Translations under genes and position numbers: made by a program
Virus record (IMG/VR): IMGVR_UViG_3300045988_094729
Reading direction: 5' to 3' (one strand)
DNA from: a virus
Length of the DNA stretch: 34,669 nt
Shown: positions 1,776-18,207 of the stretch, piece by piece
Layout: every line of letters starts with the position of its first letter
Numbering within the stretch: the first letter of the stretch is position 1
Notes under the pieces: generated by a model
Told to the model about the DNA's origin: nothing
The model's database searches: none
What the model saw: the letters and a program-made list of their open reading frames with translations, nothing else

Positions 1776-2396
1776 TTATGAGCAATAGCTTTGCAGCACC
1801 GTCAATCTGTAACTGCCGTCATTATCCGGTGTGTCGTCAATCTGCACCGATTGGAGGATTATAAAAGCGGGGACAACCCCATCCGAGTACGAGGGGTTGC
1901 TGATGAAGGCGGAGCCGTCCGTGAGGACGTACCACGCGTTGACAGAGGAGTACTGTGAGGAAAGCCACCAGGCAGCAGCCGAGCCGTTAAAGGTCTTTTT
2001 GCGGTTATTCCGGCCAGTGAATATAGGCCATGTTAAGCCTTCTTCTGTTCCGTGGTTGTCGCCGCAGCCTACCATGGTCAACGTGGGAGCAAACACCTTG
2101 CGGGTTATATCCTCGGCGCCGCTGCCGTTATATAACGGGATCGTGCTTGGGATAATCATCTCTTTAAGCTCGTCGGGGTAGCTGTTGTATATTTCCGTCA
2201 TGCGTTCGTCCAGGTCTGATCCGGTGTATTTTGCGTTACCGCCGAACCGGCAAAAGCTATGAATATCTTTGCGGATAAGCGCAGCCACGCCTGCGCCGAA
2301 AAAGCCCAGGGTGTAGTCCGCCAGCTTATAGCTGTCATCTTCTTGTCGCTCGGGAATTTTGATGTTTGTCCCGAATGTCAGTTCTCCTAATTTCAT
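1776..2396 (-). CDS. free-standing DUF6273-like domain protein; paralogue of the N-terminus of the 16456..18207 tail protein
   Basis: AAAWWLSSQYSSVNAWYVLTDGSAFISNPSYSDGVVPAFIILQSVQIDDTPDNDGSY aligns with ARWWLSSLKSSGNAWYVSTDGFDNYNNPSKTYGVVPAFVIPQSTQLEDNQNPDGSY. Strong RBS (TAAGGAGGAC). The family name is from memory. Confidence 0.75.
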   Translation of the reverse strand: MKLGELTFGTNIKIPERQEDDSYKLADYTLGFFGAGVAALIRKDIHSFCRFGGNAKYTGSDLDERMTEIYNSYPDELKEMIIPSTIPLYNGSGAEDITRKVFAPTLTMVGCGDNHGTEEGLTWPIFTGRNNRKKTFNGSAAAWWLSSQYSSVNAWYVLTDGSAFISNPSYSDGVVPAFIILQSVQIDDTPDNDGSYRLTVLQSYCS

Positions 2397-5087: not shown

Positions 5088-5723
5088 ATGGGTATGATAC
5101 ATCAGTGCTCTCAGTGTGGGAAAAAGGGGTTGTTCTTGCCGCTCAACAACCTTGGGCACTGTGAGGAATGTATAAAAAAGAATAAGGCGGAACGAGACGA
5201 GCTCAAGGCAGAGCAGGATGAGCGCGAAGCGAAACAGATCAAATGCGAGGCGGCGCAGGACGTGCCGCTCATCGCCGAAACGGAAATTACAGACGACGAG
5301 GCAGAGAAAAAGGAGGAAGTTGAAAATATGGAAAATACCGGTGTTCGCAAACCGAATGTATCTGAAAAGGACTGGCTTACTACGCTGCTTTTATGTATAT
5401 TCCTGGGTGGCTTGGGTATACATCGGTTTTACGTCAACAAGCCGCTCACGGCTGTTCTTTGGTTGCTGACTGCCGGCTGCTTTGGTGTTGGTGTTATCAT
5501 AGATATATGCAGTATAGCCAGCGGCAGTTTTACGGACGGCGACGGGGCTGTGATCCTCTCAGAAAAGCAGCGGGACAGGGCACACGGCTCTGGTGTGCAG
5601 GACGCGCCGCCCGTTGATGCCGTCGAGCAGCTCCGCAAGCTGGGTGAATTGCGGGATAGTGGTATCCTGAGTGATGAGGAGTTTGCGGCGAAGAAGTCCG
5701 TATTGCTCGACAAGATAAAATAA
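5088..5723 (+). CDS. Zn-ribbon / TM2-domain / SHOCT-domain membrane protein
   Basis: CSQCGK...CEEC ribbon. LLLCIFLGGLGIHRFYVNKPLTAVLWLLTAGCFGVGVIIDI is TM2-like. AVEQLRKLGELRDSGILSDEEFAAKKSVLL is SHOCT-like. RBS: TAGGAGGG. Confidence 0.75.
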   Translation: MGMIHQCSQCGKKGLFLPLNNLGHCEECIKKNKAERDELKAEQDEREAKQIKCEAAQDVPLIAETEITDDEAEKKEEVENMENTGVRKPNVSEKDWLTTLLLCIFLGGLGIHRFYVNKPLTAVLWLLTAGCFGVGVIIDICSIASGSFTDGDGAVILSEKQRDRAHGSGVQDAPPVDAVEQLRKLGELRDSGILSDEEFAAKKSVLLDKIK

Positions 5724-5816: not shown

Positions 5817-6929
5817 ATGGCAAGGCAAAGCGACGGGAGGTATAGGGCTAAAGTAACCGTCGGCAAGGATATGAACGGCGGCAGCGTGATAAAATATGTA
5901 TCCGGGCGCACAAAGAAGGATTTGGAGGCCGCGAAGGAGGCGGTCAAGCAAGAGTTCATCACCGGGCGCACCGCGCAGAAGGACGCGCTTTTCGGCCCAT
6001 ACGCCATACAATGGTATAACGTCTACAAAAAGCCGAATATAAAGGAATCGGCGCAGAGCGGATATAAGACGGCGCTCAACAAGCACATATTGCCGGTGCT
6101 GGGAGATAAGCGGCTCACCGCAATATCCACTATGGATTTGCAGGAGCTGCTTAACTCCAAGGGCGATACGTGCGTAACCATAATCGAAAATGTACACCAT
6201 GTGTTAGAATCCGTCTTTAAGCGGGCATACTCCGAGGGGATAATCCAGCGGGACGTGACCGTGGGGCTGGTCAAGCCCACGAAAGAAAAGTCAAGCCGCC
6301 GGGCGCTGACGGAAGCGGAGGAAGTGGCGGCAAAGAAGCTGATGCAGGAGGAAAACGGCCTGCTGGTGGCATTGCTGTACTACACCGGCATGAGGCTCGG
6401 TGAAGCCCTCGGCCTGCAATGGGAATGTGTAGATTTCAGGAGGAAGGTCATACACGTCCGGCAGCAGGTCAATTTAAGGAAGGGCATGATAACCCCGCCC
6501 AAGACGAAGGAGAGCATACGGGATATACCCCTGCCGGACGAGTTGGCGGAAATGCTCGTGCGGGGATTCCCGCAGGCGTTTGTGTTCCCCGCCACCGATG
6601 GAACATACTACCGCAATTCCTCTTCAAATAGGCTATGGCGTTCGCTGATGGAGCGCATGGCAGAGTTGGAGCCGGACATTGAAACGAGAGAGGACGGCGC
6701 CTCTATCCTCACGCCGCACTACTTCCGGCACAATTACGCCTCCATACTCTATAATGCCGGCGTTGACGTGCTTTCCGCGCAGAAATTCCTCGGCCATGCC
6801 AACGTAAAAGTAACGCTTGAAATTTATTCACACCTTTCAAAGGAAAAAGAGGACGCAAGCGCGGGCGCGGTTATGGACGCTTTCAAAAAAAGGTTGCCGG
6901 AAAGTTGCCAGAATGAAACCACAAAATGA
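5817..6929 (+). CDS. int: tyrosine recombinase / phage integrase
   Basis: YYTGMRLGEALGL (catalytic Arg box), HYFRHNYAS (HxxR) and LGHANVKVTLEIYSH (catalytic Tyr). N-terminal SAM-like arm. Confidence 0.9.
   Translation: MARQSDGRYRAKVTVGKDMNGGSVIKYVSGRTKKDLEAAKEAVKQEFITGRTAQKDALFGPYAIQWYNVYKKPNIKESAQSGYKTALNKHILPVLGDKRLTAISTMDLQELLNSKGDTCVTIIENVHHVLESVFKRAYSEGIIQRDVTVGLVKPTKEKSSRRALTEAEEVAAKKLMQEENGLLVALLYYTGMRLGEALGLQWECVDFRRKVIHVRQQVNLRKGMITPPKTKESIRDIPLPDELAEMLVRGFPQAFVFPATDGTYYRNSSSNRLWRSLMERMAELEPDIETREDGASILTPHYFRHNYASILYNAGVDVLSAQKFLGHANVKVTLEIYSHLSKEKEDASAGAVMDAFKKRLPESCQNETTK
6892..6913 (+). repeat. two tandem GTTGCCRGAA motifs (within the integrase 3' end)
   Basis: ggttgccggaa agttgccagaa. 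The same motif occurs three times at 7112..7142. Confidence 0.7.
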
Positions 6930-6960: not shown

Positions 6961-6990
6961 AAGAAAAACGCCCGTGCAACACGGGCGTTT
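6961..6990. terminator. bidirectional rho-independent terminator between the convergent int and accessory cassette
   Basis: acgcccg-tgcaaca-cgggcgt stem (6968..6988) flanked by an A-run on the left and a T-run on the right. Confidence 0.7.
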
Positions 6991-7111
6991 CTGATGTTTG
7001 GTATCCGGCGGCTACCCGTTTTTTATTCAGTTCCTTGCAGTTTCTCGTCCGTAAAAAGCGGCTGTTTATCTATATTTTCCGTTTGCGCTCGTTTTAGGGC
7101 TTGAAATAAAA

Positions 7112-7142: not shown

Positions 7143-7574
7143 TTACGCAGTAAAATATTTTTCAACCTTGAAATCCTTACCGTCTATATCGTTAATGAAA
7201 TCTTTTGCAAGGCTGAAATAAAACTCCGGATCTTCTCCTCTGCCTACCATTTCGGCGGTATCGTGACTGTCGTTGTAGTACATATTCATGCACAGATAGT
7301 ATTTGCATATCGCCGTTATGCCCTTCGTCGCCAGAAACGCCTTGATGGTATCATAGTCCCATTTTTGACCGTATGGGCGCATACCCTTGACTATCTGCCT
7401 CGCCTCTTCGGGAGTTATCCGATATGCTATTTCTTCGAGGCAATACATTGTTTCTCTGTACACCTCCGGCAGACGGTCCTTTACCGTGTGCATCATATCA
7501 GAGAGTGCATCGGTCACCTCTGTCATATCGGTGTGCCTTTCGGATATCAGGCGTATGATCTCCTTAAAGCTCAT
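7143..7574 (-). CDS. hypothetical protein (last gene of the accessory cassette)
   Basis: 143-aa ORF whose start overlaps the upstream stop by 1 nt. No family named with confidence. Confidence 0.65.
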   Translation of the reverse strand: MSFKEIIRLISERHTDMTEVTDALSDMMHTVKDRLPEVYRETMYCLEEIAYRITPEEARQIVKGMRPYGQKWDYDTIKAFLATKGITAICKYYLCMNMYYNDSHDTAEMVGRGEDPEFYFSLAKDFINDIDGKDFKVEKYFTA

Positions 7575-7951
7575 TACTCTGCGCCTCCGTCAATGCTGGC
7601 AAGCCCCTGAGTGCAAGCGGTTTTGCCAAGCATTTTAAAACTGCCGCCCGTGGCGTTGGTTTTGACGATGGTAGCATACCTGGTGCGGGTGCGTATGGCG
7701 CAGGCTGTGACCTGGGCGCAGCAGCTATTTATCAGCGGGTACTGTTCCGTGCCGGCGCCTATGGTGACGAACACGGGCGTGGTTATAGTGGTAGCCGCCG
7801 GGATAGACTGAGCTACCACGATGCAGTATTTCTGATTATCGTTATAGTTGCCTGCCGGGAGGTTGATTATCAGCCCGGTTCCCGCCGTGAAGGTAACGGC
7901 CTGGGAGATTATAAGGTTGGGGCAGAGTTTGCATACATTTTTACAAGCCAT
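7574..7951 (-). CDS. Cys-rich, beta-rich small protein (MACKNVCKLC...SCCAQVTAC...)
   Basis: 125-aa ORF, RBS GAAAGGAGCATAAAAA-ATG, nine Cys residues. Function unknown. Confidence 0.65.
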   Translation of the reverse strand: MACKNVCKLCPNLIISQAVTFTAGTGLIINLPAGNYNDNQKYCIVVAQSIPAATTITTPVFVTIGAGTEQYPLINSCCAQVTACAIRTRTRYATIVKTNATGGSFKMLGKTACTQGLASIDGGAE

Positions 7952-7967
7952 TTTTTATGCTCCTTTC

Positions 7968-7996
7968 AAAAATCAAGGGGCAGCATACGCCGCCCC
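7968..7996 (-). terminator. hairpin plus T-run (attenuator-like) between cassette genes
   Basis: Minus strand reads GGGGCGGCGTATGCTGCCCC followed by TTGATTTTTG. The stem is short. Confidence 0.35.
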
Positions 7997-8019
7997 GATA
8001 TATCACGGCATAGCCGGAA

Positions 8020-8601
8020 TTAGCAGTAGCAGCCGCAATTATTACCACAGAAGGGAGAGTTCCCCGCGTTGTAGGTGTAACCGTTGGGATAGCGGACTAC
8101 TCCGTACATGCGGTTATCCATCTCAAGGCTGGACACTTTGTCCCTGAGAGCCTGCATTTCGTTCGCCTGTATCAGGGAACGGGTGGCCTCGGCCTCGGCG
8201 TGGATAGCGGTGGTTATGTCGCAGGTGTTCTGGTTCATCTGCGCTGAGAGGTTGGCTATACCGAGCCTCTGTTCACAGCAGCAGTTTGCGAGCTGGTTGG
8301 ACAGGTTCCGGCCTTCGGTGGTGATAGCGTTGTTCAGCGCGAAGGTGGAATCACATATACCGTTGCCGATGTTAGTCAGACGGTCATTGATCTGGCCGAA
8401 GTGCTGACCGAAGAGAATTTCCTGCTGAGACGCAGCGGTGGCATACTGTCCAAATTCGCCCTGGCGGTTCCAGCCGCCAAAGCCGCCGCCCATCATAGCA
8501 AAGATCAGGATTAAGGCAAATATCCAGAAGCCTCCGTTGAAGCCGTCAGTCTTGCCATCAGTTACCGCGGCTATATCCGCGAGAGAGGGCATATTATCCA
8601 T
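8020..8601 (-). CDS. Gly-rich N-terminal TM protein with central CCC motif and C-terminal CGNNCGCYC
   Basis: 193-aa ORF with GGFWIFALILIFAMMGGGFGGW, LANCCCEQR, EMQALRDKVSSLE and a Cys-rich tail. Function unknown. Confidence 0.65.
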   Translation of the reverse strand: MDNMPSLADIAAVTDGKTDGFNGGFWIFALILIFAMMGGGFGGWNRQGEFGQYATAASQQEILFGQHFGQINDRLTNIGNGICDSTFALNNAITTEGRNLSNQLANCCCEQRLGIANLSAQMNQNTCDITTAIHAEAEATRSLIQANEMQALRDKVSSLEMDNRMYGVVRYPNGYTYNAGNSPFCGNNCGCYC

Positions 8602-8658
8602 AGTTCTAAAGTTCCTTTCGATTTATATTCCAATCCCGTGCGCGCTTCGGGTAATGGT

Positions 8659-8871
8659 CTACCTTAATTCAGAAAGAATATCCTCGGGGTCTATCCCGTA
8701 TTGCTTGCAGGCCGCATAAAACATCTGTTTAGGGTCGCCGTTGCCTATCATCTGCTTTATCTTCTGTATTTGTCCGGGAACGGACATCATCTGTTTAGCC
8801 TGCGCTATCATTTGTGGGTTGAGTTTCCTCGGACTTCCTCCGCTTAGCATTTGTAGTATCGGGTTTGGCAT
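8659..8871 (-). CDS. small Met/Gln-rich hypothetical protein
   Basis: 70-aa ORF, RBS GGAGGAAATGATAA-ATG. It overlaps the 3' end of the upstream ORF by 77 nt. Confidence 0.5.
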   Translation of the reverse strand: MPNPILQMLSGGSPRKLNPQMIAQAKQMMSVPGQIQKIKQMIGNGDPKQMFYAACKQYGIDPEDILSELR

Positions 8872-9148
8872 TTATCATTTCCTCCAATCTGGCTATTCTC
8901 TGTTCAAGGCCGTTCACATCGACAGGCGGAGCGGGTTTATACGGGGTTATGCTATAAGGCGAGAGAGAGGGGAACCCCGCCCCATCCGTTGTTTTAAGCC
9001 ACACTATGGGGGCCGTTTCGTCCAACAGAAGAACGGAGCTATTAGGGGGCATTTGATATGCCTTTGCGCCGCCCTCGCCGTTCACTTTGACTACTTCGGT
9101 TCGCTGATATTGGGTTTGCTGGTTAAAATAAGGTTGGTATGGATACAC
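8795..9148 (-). CDS. hypothetical protein (VYPYQPYFNQQ...VNGEGGAKAYQMPPNSSVLLLDETAPIVWLKTTDGAGFP)
   Basis: GTG at 9148 lies 9 nt after AAGGGAG. The track ORF extends to an ATG at 9211 that has no RBS. Confidence 0.55.
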   Translation of the reverse strand: MYPYQPYFNQQTQYQRTEVVKVNGEGGAKAYQMPPNSSVLLLDETAPIVWLKTTDGAGFPSLSPYSITPYKPAPPVDVNGLEQRIARLEEMINAKPDTTNAKRRKSEETQPTNDSAG

Positions 9149-9225
9149 TGTTTCACGCTCCCTTCTACCTGAATTTTGGCATAAAAAAAGAGCCGACAGG
9201 ATTGCTCCCATCGGCTATTTATCGG

Positions 9226-9459
9226 CTATTTACAGTGCGTTTTCAGTTGTTTTTCGGCGGCCTTGCACCGCCTGCGTATCTGGTCATATTCAAGGGGTAT
9301 TTCAAATTTAAGCTGGTACTCGCCCGTCAAAGCGTCGTATGGTATCCCGTCTAAAAGGCGGCGGGTTATCAGCCAGCGGTCTTTTTCGTTATGTATCCAT
9401 TCGTGTATGAGTGCTTCCCATTCCGTGCGTGAACGGGAATTAAGCAATGCTTTATCCAT
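9226..9459 (-). CDS. small sigma-70 region-4-like / HTH regulator heading the accessory cassette
   Basis: EWEALIHEWIHNEKDRWLITRRLLDGIPYDAL resembles small phage regulators of the ...RDR.I..RRL.DG.TYE.L type. This is a recollection, not a search. Confidence 0.4.
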   Translation of the reverse strand: MDKALLNSRSRTEWEALIHEWIHNEKDRWLITRRLLDGIPYDALTGEYQLKFEIPLEYDQIRRRCKAAEKQLKTHCK

Positions 9460-9500
9460 TTCAAAGAGGCCCGCTTCTCCAAAAGCCTATACCTCCTTTA

Positions 9501-9529
9501 TAAAAATACGCCCCCCAATTAAGGGGGGC
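9501..9529 (-). terminator. rho-independent terminator after the holin
   Basis: Minus strand reads GCCCCCC-TTAATT-GGGGGGC followed by TATTTTTAT. Confidence 0.75.
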
Positions 9530-9555: not shown

Positions 9556-9756
9556 CTACTGTTTGTTGTAGTTTGCCGAGGATATGCCCAGCACCGCGCC
9601 CAGGAACGTGTCAACGGCGGTGATGGTGCCGACTATCTCCTCGGGATAGGGAAGGTTCCAGATGCCCGCAAGGGCAAAATAGAGGGTGCCTATGGCGGGG
9701 AGCCAGATCAGGGCGATTGCCTTGAGAATGTCGTATACCTTGTTCGAGAGTTTCAT
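9556..9756 (-). CDS. holin (Dp-1-like family)
   Basis: MKLSNKVYDILKAIALIWLPAIGTLYFALAGIWNLPYPEEIVGTITAVDTFLGAVLGIS. RBS TAAAGGAGGAAAAAAC-ATG. Two TM segments. Confidence 0.75.
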   Translation of the reverse strand: MKLSNKVYDILKAIALIWLPAIGTLYFALAGIWNLPYPEEIVGTITAVDTFLGAVLGISSANYNKQ

Positions 9757-9769
9757 GTTTTTTCCTCCT

Positions 9770-10069
9770 TTAATTGTTGTGTGCTTCAAGCCTGTCCAGC
9801 CGGTGGTGGGCGCTTTTCGTGCTTTCTTCCACACGAGCCACGCGGAGGTCTATGTCCTCAATTTTGGTGGCCTGCGCCCGCATATCGAGTTTGATATCGT
9901 CCACGCCGCGCTTGATGTAGTCCACGTCCGATTTAAGCGCGGTATCAATGGCGGTGTCGTGTGTCGCCGCGTCAACCGCGTCCTTTCTCGCGGTCTTTAT
10001 GTGAGCCAACCAGCCCAGCAAAATGCCGCTCAGTCCCGTTACGATTGCCAATATCCATTCTTTGGTCAT
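9770..10069 (-). CDS. lysis-module membrane protein, N-terminal TM plus coiled coil
   Basis: WILAIVTGLSGILLGWLAHI is followed by a heptad-like region. It sits between the endolysin and the holin. Confidence 0.55.
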   Translation of the reverse strand: MTKEWILAIVTGLSGILLGWLAHIKTARKDAVDAATHDTAIDTALKSDVDYIKRGVDDIKLDMRAQATKIEDIDLRVARVEESTKSAHHRLDRLEAHNN

Positions 10070-10081
10070 GGGTGCTCCTCC

Positions 10082-10855
10082 TTATTTTTTTAGTGTGCCT
10101 ACATAGATTTTGCCGTCCACGGATACGGTAGCCTGTAACACCTCCGGCAGTTCCGTTTCCCCGGTGTTTGCATAGTCGCCCGCAAATCGCCGTATGGCCG
10201 CAATGGTGTTTTTACCAGCTATGCCGTCCGCGTCCCCCGCGTCATAGCCCAGGGCGTTAAGGGCGGTCTGTAATGCCTTGATATCGTCGCCCCGCATCAT
10301 GGGGCTCGTCAGGGTTATGATCTTCCGCGCCTTTACCTCCTCCCTTTCTTCCTCCTGCTGGAGCAGGGCAAGCCGCCCCCAGTGCGTCCAGTTGCCATCG
10401 GACAGTTTGCGCTTGCATACGCCATCGTCGCGGCCTTTCGCCTCTATGGTGTAGCCGTCGCCGACGTATACGCCGACATGTACCATTTTCTTGCTGCTTT
10501 CGCTGTACTTGAATACGAGGTCGCCCGGCCATATGGGTGTTTTCCCGACGTAGCCCCTGTTTTCGTCGCACATACGGTAAAGCCCCTGGGCGTTGGTGTC
10601 GCCCTTCATCCAGTGCCTTATGTCGCTGATGTAGTGTACGATGAGGCCAGAACAGTCGAATGCGTAGAGAGGCCGTTTTTCGGCCTTCTCCATGAATTTC
10701 ACGGCGCGGTTGTAATTCGTGTCGCTGGTTTCGCGCCGTTCTATCCATGCGTAGGGGTCGCTCATGCTGTCAACCTGCTGCCCCTGCGCACCCCAGACGT
10801 ACATATCCCCGACATGACTTTCGAGGTATTCTATGAAGCCTGTTACTCTGCTCAT
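10082..10855 (-). CDS. endolysin: NlpC/P60 peptidase plus PG_binding_1 domain
   Basis: YAFDCSGLIVHY (catalytic Cys), MVHVGVYVGDGYTIEAKG (His), C-terminal GDDIKALQTALNALGYDAGDADGIAGKNTIAAIRRF. Confidence 0.85.
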   Translation of the reverse strand: MSRVTGFIEYLESHVGDMYVWGAQGQQVDSMSDPYAWIERRETSDTNYNRAVKFMEKAEKRPLYAFDCSGLIVHYISDIRHWMKGDTNAQGLYRMCDENRGYVGKTPIWPGDLVFKYSESSKKMVHVGVYVGDGYTIEAKGRDDGVCKRKLSDGNWTHWGRLALLQQEEEREEVKARKIITLTSPMMRGDDIKALQTALNALGYDAGDADGIAGKNTIAAIRRFAGDYANTGETELPEVLQATVSVDGKIYVGTLKK

Positions 10856-13048: not shown

Positions 13049-15173
13049 GCGCTCACAACCTCCTGTACTGCCCACACGCCATTGTATACATCAAATTCAT
13101 AGGTCTTGTTTGCCTCTATTGCCGGGGCCGCGCCAATGAATGTGCCACTAAATGACACCGATACACTACTACCCGTAGTAAATGTGCCATGCGCCCAGCC
13201 GGATGCGGGAGGGGTGAATACATATGTACCAACAGGAGAAGATGCATTATATATAGTATTTGCCGTCAGTGCCGCGCCACTGGCGGGGAGGGAGGTTTCC
13301 TGTGTGGGTGGCGCGACATAATCAGTGCCGGGAATAGCAGCTTCAAAGAATGAGCCGTCACTTTTTTTATCATCGGATAATCAGTACGTTCGGACAAATC
13401 TACGGTCATTTGGACATACTGATTAAGCACGGCGAGAAGCGCAAGCGGCGATACATAATCACCTACGCTTGTGTCGGCATCCATGTCTTCAGCTGCCGCC
13501 ACTTTGCCGCCTGCACCCTTGAGCATGCCGTTAATGTTGGTCGCGGTGTCGGCAGTTATCTCGTTAGGGCCAGCGGGGCCCTGTTCGCCCTGTATGCCGG
13601 GGTCACCTTTCGCTCCCGTATCGCCCTGCGGGCCTTTGATGCTGGTACTTGCGGGGTTATCCAGTCCACCGTTATTGCTCCATGAGATTATGCCCTCGGC
13701 AGAGACGGCGGGGGTAAAATACGGCCCGGTGTCGCCCTTGGGGCCGGTGTCGCCTTTCACTCCCTGCTCTCCCTTTGCGCCCTGCTCACCAGTCGCGCCC
13801 TGTTCTCCCTTGGGGACGCCGAACTTAAAGGCAAATACCTTCGCGGTATCTGCGCCGGAAGCTGTCACCTCTACAGTAGCGGGGGTTCCCGCGTCAAGGG
13901 TGGTCGCCGTGGCGGTAGGTGTGCCGAATCCGGCGGCTTCGCCCGTGGGGCCTTGTTCTCCCTGCGGGCCTTTTATGTTGGCTTCGGGGGGATTAGCGAG
14001 GCCGCCGTTGTTTGTCCATGAGATAACTCCCTCGGCGGATACCGAGGGGGTAAAGTAGGGGCCGGTGTCGCCTTTAGCTCCGGCTGCGCCGGGGTCGCCC
14101 TTGGGGCCCGTATCGCCTTTAGGGCCAGTGGGGCCTTGCTCACCTTTTGCGCCCTGCAAGGGGCCGTTGTTTACCCACTTGGAATTTACGCCGTCCCAGA
14201 TATATATATCATACGGTTCGCCCGCGCCCACGCCGTAAGCGTCGCCAGCGGAGGGGTTAGATACTCCGGCTTGTAATGCCGAGAGAGAAGTGTAATAGCC
14301 CAACACGGCAAATCCTTCACCCGTATCGCCCTTGGCTCCCTGTGCGCCCTGTGGCCCCCTTATATTGACTGTGGCGGGGTTTTCCAGCCCGCCGTCATTA
14401 CTCCACGATAAATCGCCGTCAGCGGTCACAGAGGGCGTATAGTGCGCTCCTGCGGGGCCTCGTTCGCCCGTGGCTCCCGTGCCCCCTTTGGGGCCCGTTT
14501 CTCCCTTGTCTCCGGGGTCGCCTTTAGGCCCTTGGATACCCTGTTCACCTTTGGGGCCAGTGGGGCCCGTTTCTCCTGCGGCTCCCGTGTCGCCTTTATC
14601 GCCTTTCTTGCCTTCGGGGCCTTGGGGGCCGACGGGGCCGGGAGTGCCGTCCTGCCACGCCGAGCCGCTTGCGGTTCGAGTGAGTACCTGCCCCGGCGTT
14701 CCGCCCGCCGGCAATCCCCCGCCGCCGGATCCGCCGCCGCTCTGCGCCGCCTCGTTTATGGCCGCTACAAGGGTATTCTTGTCCGCGGTGGTCAACTCGT
14801 CCATGTCGCCGATTTTTGCAAGGAGTTGTTCGTACTGCGTCAGGGATATATCCGGCAGTTCGCCATCCGCAGCGCCGAATGGCAGTACGTCAAACCATAC
14901 CGGGCCCGCCGTCACGCGGCTGTCGGCCTTTATGCCGGATAGTTTCAGTTCCCAGCGTCCTGCAGTGAGGTTTATTCCCTGCGCTGCAGTGATTTCGCCA
15001 CTTGTGAGCTCCGCGGTTATGGTCTTATCTCCGCATACAAAATAGGCCGTGATAACGCGGCCGTTCCAGTCGGCGTCAAACGCAAATTTTGCAGTCAGAT
15101 AGTTTATGCTGTCCGCCACCACAAGTGGTGTACGCAGCATAAGCCTCTGCCCGCGTATAATGCCTGTAAGCAT
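13045..15173 (-). CDS. collagen-like tail fibre. The zero frame stops at 13266 (635 aa); the -1 frame after A AAA AAA (13368..13362) extends it to 13045 (709 aa).
   Basis: Long G-X-Y runs (GPQGPEGKKGDKGDTGAAGETGPTGPKGEQG...). A module Y(F)TPSVSAEGxISWxNNGGLxNP occurs three times. A startless 105-codon -1 ORF reads SDGSFFEAAIPGTDYVAPP...YEFDVYNGVWAVQEVVSA. Confidence 0.8.
13362..13368 (-). other. A AAA AAA heptamer in X XXY YYZ phase (candidate -1 shift site or A-tract indel)
   Basis: The zero frame reads ATG ATA AAA AAA GTG. The -1 frame opens only 4 codons upstream (TGA TTA TCC GAT GAT AAA AAA AGT). Confidence 0.6.
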
Positions 15174-15414: not shown

Positions 15415-16463
15415 ACGAACACCACCTTTTTTGCCTGATGCTCCATGAGGGCGCCAGGGCGTATCTCTATTTTCCAGTCGGTTTCCTCGTATACGCCCAC
15501 CAGATCCCCGTTATACAGCGCGATAACATCTCCTACGCCATGGGCCGGGTTTATGGCCGTGTAAAATTTGATTTTTTGCGTTGCAAACATGGATTTCACA
15601 GCAAGATTATCCGCGTATTTTTGCAGCGCCGTCTGGCTTGCTATATTATCCAGTTCAACCGGCGTCGCCAATATGCGCCGCCCCCTGCGTACCGTGGACA
15701 AAGCGGAGATCATGCTGTCATTTATGCCCGTTGCGGTCATGGGGTTGTCATAGTCAGGGTTAGATACGTTGACGATGAAAACGTTGGGGGCCTCATATAT
15801 GTCCATTTCCTCTGTGTATTCCGGGGCGATAATACTATATTCGTCGTCCCGATACTCCCGGTCTATGTTGGAGCTGGACGGAGCCTCGTACCTTTCAAGG
15901 CGGGCCACCCCATCAAAATCAAACCAAACATCCGAAAAGTTTATCTCGGACAGCAGTGCATTGATAATGGTGAGATATTCCGTTCCTATTTCCCAATCCT
16001 CACGGTCTGTGGCAAGAGTGTCCTCGCAATCGTCCATCCGTATGCGCGGTATTCCGGCGTCCCGGATAAGGCTCTGTATCGCAGTCATATATGGCGTCCC
16101 CGCCGCAATATAATACCGGGCCTCGGTTTTGGTTTGTTTGAGCTTCAGTGCGCGGTCGTATGCCTCTATGGTGTCCTCGTCCTTGCCGTATTTAGTGTGT
16201 TTGGTGGTCAGCGTGCCCACCATGTATATGCCGAGAGGATACTCTATGCCGTCCTTGATGTAATACGGTCTTATTTCGTCGTTTAGATAATCCACATTGT
16301 CGTTATGCTCGAACACGCCGTATATGGAGGTTTTTATTTCGCCATCGGCAGCCATGGTGACGGTGGGATAGCTATCTCCCACCGCCGCCAGATTGTGCTC
16401 TGTAACAGCCCCGTTGTGTATCACCTCAAAGCGGCTGGCTACTATACTCAGTGTATCAGTCAT
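15411..16463 (-). CDS. tail-associated (Tal-like) baseplate/hub protein
   Basis: 350 aa, positioned immediately after the Dit-like gene in a siphovirus tail module. Assignment rests on synteny only. Confidence 0.55.
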   Translation of the reverse strand: MTDTLSIVASRFEVIHNGAVTEHNLAAVGDSYPTVTMAADGEIKTSIYGVFEHNDNVDYLNDEIRPYYIKDGIEYPLGIYMVGTLTTKHTKYGKDEDTIEAYDRALKLKQTKTEARYYIAAGTPYMTAIQSLIRDAGIPRIRMDDCEDTLATDREDWEIGTEYLTIINALLSEINFSDVWFDFDGVARLERYEAPSSSNIDREYRDDEYSIIAPEYTEEMDIYEAPNVFIVNVSNPDYDNPMTATGINDSMISALSTVRRGRRILATPVELDNIASQTALQKYADNLAVKSMFATQKIKFYTAINPAHGVGDVIALYNGDLVGVYEETDWKIEIRPGALMEHQAKKVVFV

Positions 16464-18207
16464 ACTCTATTCTCTCCATATTGTCCGTCTGCTGTATGCT
16501 GCACGAAAATGCCCTGAAAAACTGGTCTACGCTCAGTTCGAAGCCCATCAGCGGGCCGGTGCACAGGCAGCCGTGCTGATCTCTGTATATCACGGTCTTG
16601 CCCAGCAGCCCCTCAAAAGCCGCTGCCTGCGCCGCATCGTTAAAAGCAGCGTTAAAACTGTATATTTTGGTTATTTGCTGCGAGGTCTCAGCCACGGGAT
16701 ACCGCCGCCCGGCGTAAAACTGATACGCTACATCCTGATACGCCGACACGCCCAGCGGGCTATTCTGCGCGGTGGAATATTCCAGCCGCAACCATTGCAT
16801 TTCACCCAGCGCCGCTATCTCCGGCGCGTCTACCGAAAGCGTGACCGTGACCTCATTGGACATGGAGTAACTGTCTCCAGCAACGCCGCGCACTTTATAT
16901 TTGTGCGTCCCTATGGCCATTTGGTCGGAGTATGTGTGTGCCGTGGTTTTTGCTATTGGTATGTCATCGCGGTAAATATAGTAAGTTTTGTGATCCGTTT
17001 CTGTCCATGCAAGGGCCGCTTTTTCGCCGCCCGCGGCAAAAAGTGTTATTGGCGCGCCCGGGGTGTTGGCAACGGTAAATTCAGCCGTTCCCCAATCGCT
17101 CCAAAGGCCATATTCGTTTTGTATCCGCACCGCGGCTATGTGCGCGCCATCATTCAGGTATTCTTTAACCTTATACTGCCCGTCAGTGCTGTAAGCGGTG
17201 CGGAGCACCGCATCGTCTACCTTCACCTGATAAGCAAGCTGCCCTTCGCCTGTCCACGTTATCACCGGCCTTGGGCTTGCCGTTGCGGCTACCGTCGGTG
17301 TGGATGGTTTGCCCTGAGCCGTAAACGATACTTCCGTGCTCCATGCGGATACGGCATCATAAATATTAGTGCAGCGCACACGCCAGTATACGGTTCCCGC
17401 AACTAAGGTGTTCGGCGGTATGTCGGCGTATGTGTTTGCCGTTTCTCCTGTTTGCAGCTCCGTCCATTCTGTATGTGACGTGTCTTTATATTGCAGTTCG
17501 TATTTTTTCTGTGGGATGCCGTTTTCGCTTTTGTACGTCCACTCGAATCTTACGGTCTCCCAGCTTCCGGCGTATGTGTTTTTTGGTTTTGTCGCCGTTG
17601 CGGTTATTTTATCGTTTGGGAACAGGCCCTTTATGTAGTAGCTGCCGTCGGGGTTTTGGTTATCTTCCAACTGTGTTGATTGAGGGATTACAAAAGCGGG
17701 GACAACACCATACGTTTTCGAGGGGTTGTTGTAGTTGTCGAAGCCGTCCGTGCTGACGTACCAGGCGTTGCCAGAAGATTTCAGCGAGGAAAGCCACCAG
17801 CGGGCAGCCAAGCCGTTGAGGGTTTTAATCCTCGTGTGTAATTGGAGGGTTTTGCCCTCCGCAACTCCGTTGTTATTGCCGAAGCCCGCCATGGTGTAGG
17901 TCATGGCAAACATCTTACGGGTTATATTGCCAGAGCCGGAAAGATTAAACGTTACGTCCATCATTTTTTCGCGCAGCGTTTGCGGGAAACTGTTGAATAT
18001 CGTATTTTTTATAAGATTATCCAGTGTTCCGTTCGGGTATAGGGCCGAGTTTCCAAACTCCGATTCTTCGTACACTCTTTTGTATACCAGCACCGCTCCG
18101 CCGGATACGAGGTTATCTTTATCCGCCACTTCGCATAGCCTGTTTTCTTCGGTGCCTACCGGGATGAGTATTGTTGCCCCCAGCGGCAAGTCTGCTAATG
18201 TCGCCAT
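16456..18207 (-). CDS. distal tail protein (Dit-like) with N-terminal DUF6273-like domain and Ig/FN3-like repeats
   Basis: 583 aa, directly after the tape measure. N-terminal ~200 aa are paralogous to ORF 1776..2396. The middle shows repeated beta-sandwich-like W..W...F.. patterns. Confidence 0.6.
   Translation of the reverse strand: MATLADLPLGATILIPVGTEENRLCEVADKDNLVSGGAVLVYKRVYEESEFGNSALYPNGTLDNLIKNTIFNSFPQTLREKMMDVTFNLSGSGNITRKMFAMTYTMAGFGNNNGVAEGKTLQLHTRIKTLNGLAARWWLSSLKSSGNAWYVSTDGFDNYNNPSKTYGVVPAFVIPQSTQLEDNQNPDGSYYIKGLFPNDKITATATKPKNTYAGSWETVRFEWTYKSENGIPQKKYELQYKDTSHTEWTELQTGETANTYADIPPNTLVAGTVYWRVRCTNIYDAVSAWSTEVSFTAQGKPSTPTVAATASPRPVITWTGEGQLAYQVKVDDAVLRTAYSTDGQYKVKEYLNDGAHIAAVRIQNEYGLWSDWGTAEFTVANTPGAPITLFAAGGEKAALAWTETDHKTYYIYRDDIPIAKTTAHTYSDQMAIGTHKYKVRGVAGDSYSMSNEVTVTLSVDAPEIAALGEMQWLRLEYSTAQNSPLGVSAYQDVAYQFYAGRRYPVAETSQQITKIYSFNAAFNDAAQAAAFEGLLGKTVIYRDQHGCLCTGPLMGFELSVDQFFRAFSCSIQQTDNMERIEYD

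Follow-up and report, generated by a model that had tools for sequence, protein, structure and literature searches.

Morons and lysogenic-conversion cassettes situated between the lysis genes and the phage attachment site (attP) include the immune-evasion cluster of Staphylococcus aureus phages, the streptococcal toxin and paratox genes, and the stx genes of late operons. Phages also encode proteins that act at the membrane level to exclude superinfecting phages, and known examples such as HK97 gp15, P22 SieA, T4 Imm and lactococcal Sie2009 consist of one small protein each, produced from the prophage or at an early stage of infection. Here we analyse a block of six genes, termed c1–c6 in the order of their transcription, from the IMG/VR virus record IMGVR_UViG_3300045988_094729, the entire 34,669 nucleotides of which are referred to below as the window. 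The block is one copy of a widespread gut-phage module that is composed of c1, a terminator, a core of c2, c3 and c4, an attenuator, and the exchangeable genes c5 and c6. An earlier inspection of the DNA letters without database searches (the sequence-only reading) had seen in it a cassette in the slot beside attP where cargo is usual. A view of it as the private cargo of one phage has to be revised, as our searches returned 4,446 homologues of c4 (E ≤ 0.001 in a 90%-clustered collection; 744 clusters at 50% identity) and 4,794 of c5, in varied phages and at varied positions. None of these homologues has a name or a Pfam domain, and many lie on contigs of 30–45 kb. No description of the module was found in the sequence libraries or the literature that we searched.

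The window phage is a temperate HK97-type siphovirus. Its block (9459..7143, minus strand) consists of six co-directional open reading frames (ORFs) bounded by the holin terminator and a bidirectional terminator, the latter ~150 nt from the prophage junction (Table 1). Several IMG/VR provirus contigs stop matching the window at the divergence point listed there, and the block therefore adjoins the attachment site. In these respects the sequence-only reading was accurate: it had described a discrete, terminator-bounded unit next to attP, and the terminator scan and the provirus contigs both agree with it. The motifs that it quoted (FWIFALILIFAMMGGGFGGW, LANCCCEQR, CGNNCGCYC and MACKNVCKLC) are likewise all present in the ORF translations.

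A comparison of 80 IMG/VR loci (here and for further phage loci denoted by L and a number) shows what is constant and what is variable in the module. Close relatives keep all six genes at ~86–100% identity, with c6 at 66–67% in five of them, and divergent loci keep the order with c2 and c4 at 50–60% identity. When the positional equivalents were clustered, c2, c3 and c4 each formed one family, the proteins of slot 5 fell into two main families, and those of slot 6 into at least four. The genes c2, c3 and c4 always occur together, and the types found in slots 5 and 6 are combined freely. Independent occurrence of the genes, which the sequence-only reading had regarded as a point that would count against a cassette, is seen for slots 5 and 6, filled elsewhere by unrelated families, but not for the inseparable core. 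The fixed order, two retained terminators, a slowly evolving Cys-rich protein and the free exchange of the last two genes together indicate that the genes work together under selection.

The module usually comes after the lysis genes, where it closes the late operon at its 3′ end. It directly follows the holin/endolysin genes in the window and in L058, L094, L095, L101 and L107, and lies close to them in L078 and L105. The same order recurs in unrelated siphoviruses, in phages encoding polyvalent proteins of 1,700–3,100 aa and in a 58-kb phage. In Dulem virus 39 the module comes after an integrase, among replication genes, and in Bajarodcaudo virus 2 (34% GC, no annotated integrase) it has the portal gene on one side and the scaffold/capsid genes on the other. 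Most of the carriers seen are temperate. Variable positions, unrelated carrier phages and transcription signals of its own place the block among the moron-type elements, with the promoter among these signals a candidate read from the sequence. A tblastn search of c2, c4 and c5 against 50,697 phage records yielded metagenomic phages only; none of the hits was a cultured phage whose host or proteome is known. The module is present in phages of human, lemur and rodent guts, and the likely hosts are Clostridia, although the matches in genome collections are mostly metagenome bins with unreliable taxonomy. As a separate observation, giant proteins (1,664–3,128 aa) are encoded directly upstream of the module in L062 (21–5015) and L105 (3725–9646), and ~7.5 kb upstream of it, at the start of the locus, in L101–L103; matches to polyvalent-protein domains (ART-PolyVal and, faintly, MPTase-PolyVal) are recorded for the giant proteins of L101–L103 only.

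The anchor gene of the module is c4, whose product belongs to phrog_16490, a family annotated as of unknown function. From the N- to the C-terminus, the protein comprises an acidic tail, a single Gly-rich hydrophobic segment and a helical/coiled-coil region that includes a CCC motif; then come the conserved VVRYPxxxTYxAGxSPFC motif and a Cys-rich tail, which is near-universal among the homologues. It is the only one of the six proteins to contain a hydrophobic segment, and none of the sequences of c1–c6 has a signal peptide. In 41 diverse c4 proteins there is one such segment, preceded by an N-terminal tail with a mean net charge of −2.8 and followed by about one Lys or Arg residue, a distribution that weakly favours an N-out, C-in orientation and hence a cytoplasmic C-terminal domain. 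These three observations give no support to the extracytoplasmic assemblies that had been suggested from the Cys patterns. A profile search of PDB sequences with c4 gave no significant match, and no lipobox-bearing ORF was seen in or beside c4 among the ORFs of the window.

Two proteins of the representative library are in-frame fusions in which a BclA_C-like domain (P0332) or the C-terminal half of DUF7841 (P0294) follows the N-terminus and membrane segment of c4. They lend weak support to the idea that the fused parts work from one side of the membrane, and may equally be natural deletion fusions or artefacts of assembly or deletion. An insertion of ~790 bp was also observed at the c3/c4 junction of L050 (5231–5896, minus strand) and at the same place in L049, L051–L053 and L079. 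It encodes a 221-aa ORF on the reverse strand that looks by eye like an HNH/AP2-type homing endonuclease; the insertion would be a selfish element lodged at a conserved junction of the module.

The two other core genes overlap. The start of c3 lies inside the 3′ end of c2, with an overlap of 77 nt, and its ATG is preceded by a Shine-Dalgarno sequence of its own, GGAGGAA, as the sequence-only reading had noted; the overlap recurs in most divergent modules. The c2 protein (phrog_21718, annotated as of unknown function) has a Q/N/Y/P-rich N-terminal tail, a small α/β domain, an amphipathic helix and a charged tail. Its 117-aa form matches the database protein P0414 with 98% identity over 100% of the length. 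A longer c2 ORF starting at 9211 was rejected, because its start would fall inside a terminator hairpin and because the 117-aa form is the one that matches P0414. The AlphaFold2 model of c2 has predicted local distance difference test (pLDDT) values above 90 at residues ~20–70, and neither this model in a fold search of the PDB nor a profile search of PDB sequences returned a significant match. A search of BFVD gave 23 matches at E ≤ 0.001, all of them uncharacterised proteins, some with evidently automatic names, of uncultured phages labelled as sipho-, myo- or podoviruses. The c3 protein, of ~70 aa, is predicted to be helical and retains an N-terminal MxNPILQ motif; 36 of the 41 distinct sequences collected belong to one family.

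The slowest-evolving component of the module is c5. The form found in the window, which we call type A, is rich in β-structure and contains seven Cys residues (C3, C7, C10, C43, C78, C84 and C113) that are invariant in an alignment of 37 sequences. The type A proteins of the window (50% GC) and Bajarodcaudo virus 2 (34% GC) are 58% identical, compared with only 29% for c4. The AlphaFold2 model of c5 contains eight strands at a pLDDT of 65, and a Foldseek search of the PDB with it returned no match, the best hits being to OB folds at E = 0.3 and low probability; Pfam and a profile search of PDB sequences also gave no match. The other main slot-5 type, present in sister modules, is BclA_C/C1q-like: Pfam BclA_C was detected in four of nine scanned members (best E = 5.6e-7), and in the PDB these proteins match BclA (2e-5) and cerebellin (3e-7). 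A hidden Markov model (HMM) built from them did not match type A at E < 1, and the two types are positional analogues. Similarity to the BclA_C/C1q-TNF group was accordingly seen in the sister slot-5 proteins only, and the window c5 showed none by sequence, HMM or fold. A literature search combining BclA, prophages and C1q found nothing relevant. We also considered whether c5 is a copy of the phage’s own fibre tip, serving as a receptor decoy, and found no similarity to its 635-aa collagen-like protein. A tether between the N-terminus of c5 and the Cys tail of c4 was likewise discarded, as the c4 tail is near-universal regardless of the N-terminal Cys residues of c5, and the two do not co-vary.

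The sixth protein is the only one with a Pfam match. It scores 33.0 bits against the 25.2-bit cut-off of Pfam DUF7841 (E = 7.6e-8, residues 53–141), and its homologues in L101 and L105 are also annotated as PF25223. The description of the six as proteins of no recognisable function is thus not confirmed in full, as c6 can be recognised as DUF7841. A search of PDB sequences with the DUF7841 profile gave no relative, and a literature search found no paper on this family. The start codon of c6 overlaps the stop codon of c5 (ATGA). In addition to DUF7841, the families that fill slot 6, at least four in number, include a small ferritin-like one. For this alternative of ~100 aa, the match is to BfrB (E = 1.1e-6) and covers its helices A and B, with E and H residues kept in six aligned members. 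A larger slot-6 family was also considered as ferritin-like, and no ferritin match was obtained for it.

Scans of the six proteins against Pfam, PHROGs, PADLOC and NCBIfam returned only DUF7841 and two PHROGs of unknown function. In PADLOC-DB v2, the best hits of c4, c5 and c6 were to unrelated models (E = 0.02–0.035) and there was nothing for c1–c3, which does not bear out the suggestion of defence cargo. No match to virion families was found among PHROGs, Pfam or PDB sequences, or by fold for c2 and c5, the two proteins for which the proposed Foldseek comparison of AlphaFold2 models was run. Lysis families were not matched by any of the six in Pfam or PHROGs, and the endolysin and holin of the phage are separate genes. 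The absence of homology to virion, lysis and replication proteins, as judged by the sequence-only reading, hence held in the Pfam, PHROG and PDB sequence and fold searches. The spore-coat families CotY/ExsY, CotJ, Coat_F, GerQ and YjcZ gave no match in Pfam or NCBIfam, and no sporulation-type promoter motif was seen in the upstream sequences, which were inspected by eye and not formally scanned.

The first gene of the module probably encodes a small helix-turn-helix (HTH) regulator of the sigma-70-region-4/LuxR type. The window c1 itself has no Pfam match at E ≤ 1. The assignment is drawn from a 49% identical homologue in L058, which matches Sigma70_r4_2 below threshold (E = 0.016), and from slot-1 genes of sister modules that are above threshold: the L061 type matches GerE (E = 1.5e-11, 44.2 bits) and Sigma70_r4_2 (4e-8), and the L107 type passes the 24.1-bit cut-off of Sigma70_r4 with 26.7 bits. 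The idea of a block regulated by its own small HTH protein is thereby supported as probable, with the HTH seen in sister slot-1 proteins but not by Pfam in the window c1. No Shine-Dalgarno sequence is near the ATG of c1, and a 37-aa ORF with a TTG start (9369–9482, minus strand) overlaps the start of c1 in another frame, 8 nt past a strong AAGGAGG.

The scan called 16 terminator-like sites in 4 kb of the window, compared with 5.1 ± 2.5 in shuffled sequences. One of these, the hairpin between c1 and c2, is missing from the list of the sequence-only reading. We counted hairpins followed by a T run with strict rules over 24 divergent modules. They are present at 13 of 18 c1/c2 junctions, 16 of 24 c4/c5 junctions and 11 of 17 sites after c6, and at none of 20 c3/c4 or 17 c5/c6 junctions. 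The hairpin between the 193-aa and 125-aa genes, to which the sequence-only reading had drawn attention, is therefore a retained feature of the module. When spacers were folded individually, nearly all divergent modules with a c4/c5 spacer showed a GC-rich hairpin and T run at this place. The stems vary in sequence among modules, with GAAAGGAG and the c5 start directly 3′ of each; alignment of the spacers with MAFFT/RNAalifold did not bring the hairpins into register. In the window, too, the hairpin is directly followed by the GAAAGGAG Shine-Dalgarno sequence of c5. As this leaves no space for a promoter, c5 and c6 would be read by transcription through the terminator, and the hairpin is most simply explained as an attenuator that holds c5 and c6 below c2–c4.

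The start of transcription is less well defined. A consensus scan of the window called no sigma-70-type promoter upstream of c1 or c2, and its only two calls on the minus strand fall at or within c4. The sequence TGC[CG]AAAAT stands right after the T run of the c1 terminator in the window, L058 and L088, and TGCCAAAAT may possibly be an extended −10 element of a c1-dependent promoter for c2–c4. In L058, L095, L105 and L062, c1 starts 0–8 nt from the upstream late or lysis gene. This proximity suggests that c1 is made from late transcription, and that the module is fed by the late operon and not by the prophage state.

Table 1. Positions of the module and its neighbours in the window.
Feature	Position	Strand	Remarks
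Terminase, portal, protease, capsid and tail genes	~28 kb down to 11.4 kb	minus	from annotation
NlpC/P60 endolysin	10082..10855	minus	
Membrane/coiled-coil protein gene	9770..10069	minus	listed between endolysin and holin
Dp-1-type holin	9556..9834	minus	
Holin terminator	9500..9529 (hairpin 9529..9510)	minus	7-bp all-GC stem and T run, tail GTATTTTTAT; upstream module boundary in the window phage
c1	9226..9459	minus	77 aa
c1/c2 terminator	9183..9216 (hairpin 9216..9191)	minus	11-bp stem and T7 run; from terminator scan
Candidate extended −10 element TGCCAAAAT	9173..9181	minus	directly after the T run of the c1 terminator; read from the sequence
c2	8795..9148	minus	117 aa, GTG start
c3	8659..8871	minus	70 aa
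c4	8020..8601	minus	193 aa
c4/c5 terminator/attenuator	7967..7996 (hairpin 7996..7977)	minus	8-bp stem with 7 GC pairs, T run
c5	7574..7951	minus	125 aa
c6	7143..7574	minus	143 aa
Bidirectional terminator (6966..6990) and provirus divergence point, attP core region (~6987..6997)	6966..6997	both	terminator shared with the convergent integrase gene
Tyrosine integrase	5817..6929	plus	repressor genes also on the plus strand

Several features elsewhere in the window are recorded here for completeness. The gene of a membrane protein with TM2 and SHOCT domains (5088–5723, plus strand) lies downstream of that of an HTH_3 protein and immediately precedes the integrase gene; its product is another candidate for a membrane protein expressed by the prophage. 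A Pistol ribozyme (Rfam RF02679; 2448–2508, minus strand) scores 40.9 bits against a gathering threshold of 34.5 (E = 2.6e-4) and lies just upstream of a 206-aa DUF6273 ORF (1776..2396, minus strand). DUF6273 occurs in a second, separate protein (16456–18207, minus strand), which belongs to the tail region and also contains an Ig-like domain. The 635-aa fibre-like protein (13266–15173, minus strand) has several collagen (G-X-Y) blocks between repeated ‘YFTPSVSAEG.ISW.NNGGL.NP’ units. In the related prophage L105, a reverse transcriptase (RVT_1) lies beside a collagen/DUF6273 fibre gene, a pairing that may reflect a diversity-generating retroelement in this phage group.

How such a module might work can be outlined as follows. 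Transcription read through from, or shared with, the upstream genes, usually late or lysis genes, would produce c1, which in turn would switch on a promoter overlapping the terminator that precedes c2. The single Gly-rich segment of c4 would anchor this protein in the cytoplasmic membrane and leave its coiled-coil, Cys-rich domain facing the cytoplasm, where c2 and c3, which have no signal peptides, would dock. The attenuator would allow smaller amounts of c5 and c6 to be made, and both would join the complex, c5 as a Cys-rich β-protein in the window and, in sister modules, as a trimeric C1q/BclA-like head, and c6 as a helical protein, with the Cys clusters holding metal or cross-links. We can only guess at the service that this complex performs for the phage at the membrane; it might be gatekeeping at the inner face against the entry of further phage DNA, a form of superinfection exclusion or defence with no part in virion building, lysis or DNA replication. 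A role at the membrane is favoured because this accessory unit is mobile and membrane-bound and is related to no virion, lysis or replication family.

We assign a probability of about 35% to this reading of the block as a mobile, self-contained, moron-type accessory module of gut Bacillota phages that works as a complex at the membrane face with a guessed role in exclusion. A number of points weigh against it. Exclusion is a role guessed at by elimination and by analogy, none of the proteins has a characterised homologue, no PADLOC model is matched, and six genes are many for superinfection exclusion. The topology call for c4 is a weak one, taken from charge statistics, and the contacts among the module proteins are ones that we infer. 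The proposed promoter of c2–c4 received no call in the consensus scan, a strong terminator parts c1 from the holin in the window phage, and the module of Dulem virus 39 is located among early/replication genes, so late timing is not universal. Finally, the 58% identity of type A c5 across genomes of 50% and 34% GC is unlike that of arms-race proteins. More tentatively, the module may represent a novel multi-protein phage system, switched by an HTH regulator acting at a terminator-promoter junction, in which c2, c3 and c4 form a membrane-anchored stalk linked by Cys residues or metal and carry exchangeable heads (the Cys-rich β-protein or a C1q/BclA-like trimer) and helical partners (DUF7841 or ferritin-like).

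A different explanation starts from the prophage. The block would then be cargo expressed in the lysogen from its own promoter, for lysogenic conversion or as a new anti-phage defence, with c4 as the membrane effector and c5 and c6 as exchangeable sensor or specificity parts. The classic slot between lysis genes and attP, the terminators on both sides in the window, the HTH regulator and the temperate lifestyle of most carriers seen all agree with this, and a conserved core with swapped accessory genes resembles many defence systems. We nevertheless consider it doubtful, though a serious possibility, given that PADLOC is silent, that the promoter scan called nothing of the sigma-70 type upstream of c1 or c2, that several phages have c1 coupled to the late genes before it, that the module sits between portal and capsid genes where no integrase is annotated, and that type A c5 is unusually conserved. 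Late expression would also suit virion-associated accessories, such as head or tail decorations, fibre-like appendages or ejection proteins, which would assemble in the cytoplasm and be stabilised by disulfides outside the cell. The module is co-directional with, and ends, late operons, and its place between portal and scaffold/capsid genes in Bajarodcaudo virus 2 fits such a role. Many Cys residues without signal peptides would suit assembly in the reducing cytoplasm followed by release to air, and a BclA_C/C1q-like domain occurs in sister slot 5; C1q-like folds are used in fibre tips. A virion role is unlikely, however. The membrane segment of c4 is clear, and structural genes do not usually come with internal terminators and a regulator of their own. 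That phages of very different build carry the module argues against fitted structural partners. No PDB virion protein is similar, and c5 does not resemble the phage’s own collagen-like fibre protein.

The position right behind holin and endolysin, which the module occupies in the window and in the five loci named above, raises the question of an accessory to lysis or egress, either a membrane-anchored coiled-coil complex that tunes or completes envelope disruption or a set of signal-less proteins freed by lysis. The build of c4, with a membrane segment, a coiled coil and Cys residues, is that of Rz-type spanins and XhlA-like proteins. Yet a place after the lysis genes is, quite simply, also a place at the end of the late operon. 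Bajarodcaudo virus 2 and Dulem virus 39 carry the module far away from their lysis genes, and the likely hosts are Clostridia, which to our knowledge have no outer membrane. The BclA_C-like and ferritin-like partners have no known lysis role and no lysis family was matched in Pfam or PHROGs, all of which makes this explanation improbable. Least credible is the remodelling of the spore surface by a coat- or exosporium-like structure; its proteins would come from the mother-cell cytoplasm, assemble on the forespore membrane and be controlled by a GerE-like regulator. A GerE-family HTH does occur in slot 1 of some modules, slot 5 is BclA_C-like in many and slot 6 ferritin-like in some. The module proteins also recall coat and exosporium proteins in their Cys-rich and Q/N/Y-rich composition and in having no signal peptides. 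The BclA_C domain aside, however, Pfam and NCBIfam revealed no coat-family homology, the upstream sequences showed no sporulation-type motif by eye, the hosts are known from metagenome bins only, and the window c5 and c6 are not of the BclA_C or ferritin types.

None of the core proteins of the module has a characterised relative, and its function, if worked out, would annotate thousands of ‘hypothetical’ genes of gut viromes and could bring to light a new action of temperate gut phages on the membrane of the host cell. Should the multi-protein system proposed above prove true, it would be a new phage device for exclusion, defence or envelope remodelling, widespread in phages of gut Clostridia. 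If the module instead has a routine exclusion function or is a minor structural add-on, the gain would mainly be better annotation.

Comparison with known systems brings out partial likenesses to several of them. To ferritins (bacterioferritin/BfrB), the link is the ~100-aa slot-6 family of sister modules with its match to helices A and B, but this protein has half the length of a ferritin subunit, the larger slot-6 type has no ferritin match, and the DUF7841 protein of the window has no similarity to ferritin or other PDB entries. With Rz/Rz1 spanins and XhlA, the module shares the membrane segment, coiled coil and conserved Cys residues of c4, an overlapping gene pair and a frequent location beside holin and endolysin genes. 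It differs from them in that the overlap involves c2 and c3 and not c4, there is no lipoprotein partner, the module is sometimes far from lysis genes, and Pfam and PHROGs show no homology. Like the membrane-level exclusion proteins introduced at the outset, c4 is a phage-encoded, non-essential membrane protein in an accessory position, for which a location at the cytoplasmic face is plausible. Unlike them, the module comprises many genes, is usually fed by late transcription, and has no similarity to them in PHROGs or PADLOC.

The moron and conversion cassettes are close in organization, as they too form a terminator-bounded block that stands beside attP where the late operon ends and that moves between unrelated phage backbones. 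The present module is distinguished from these by its fixed layout of five or six genes, complete with a regulator and an internal attenuator of its own, by its retention across thousands of phage sequences, including within head-gene clusters, and by library scans that detect no toxin, enzyme or known effector domain. A structural parallel is offered by the BclA exosporium fibre and the C1q-TNF proteins. Differences include the lack of collagen repeats in the module, the encoding of head and stalk by separate genes, the lack of BclA_C similarity of the window type A c5 in HMM and fold searches, and the putative nature of both the trimer and the head–stalk contact. In common are the BclA_C-like domain of the sister slot-5 proteins, the combination of anchor and helical stalk in c4, and the natural variant P0332, which fuses this anchor to a BclA_C-like domain. 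By analogy, the sister modules thus appear to resemble a split BclA/TNF-like fibre, with an anchor, a stalk and a C1q-like head.

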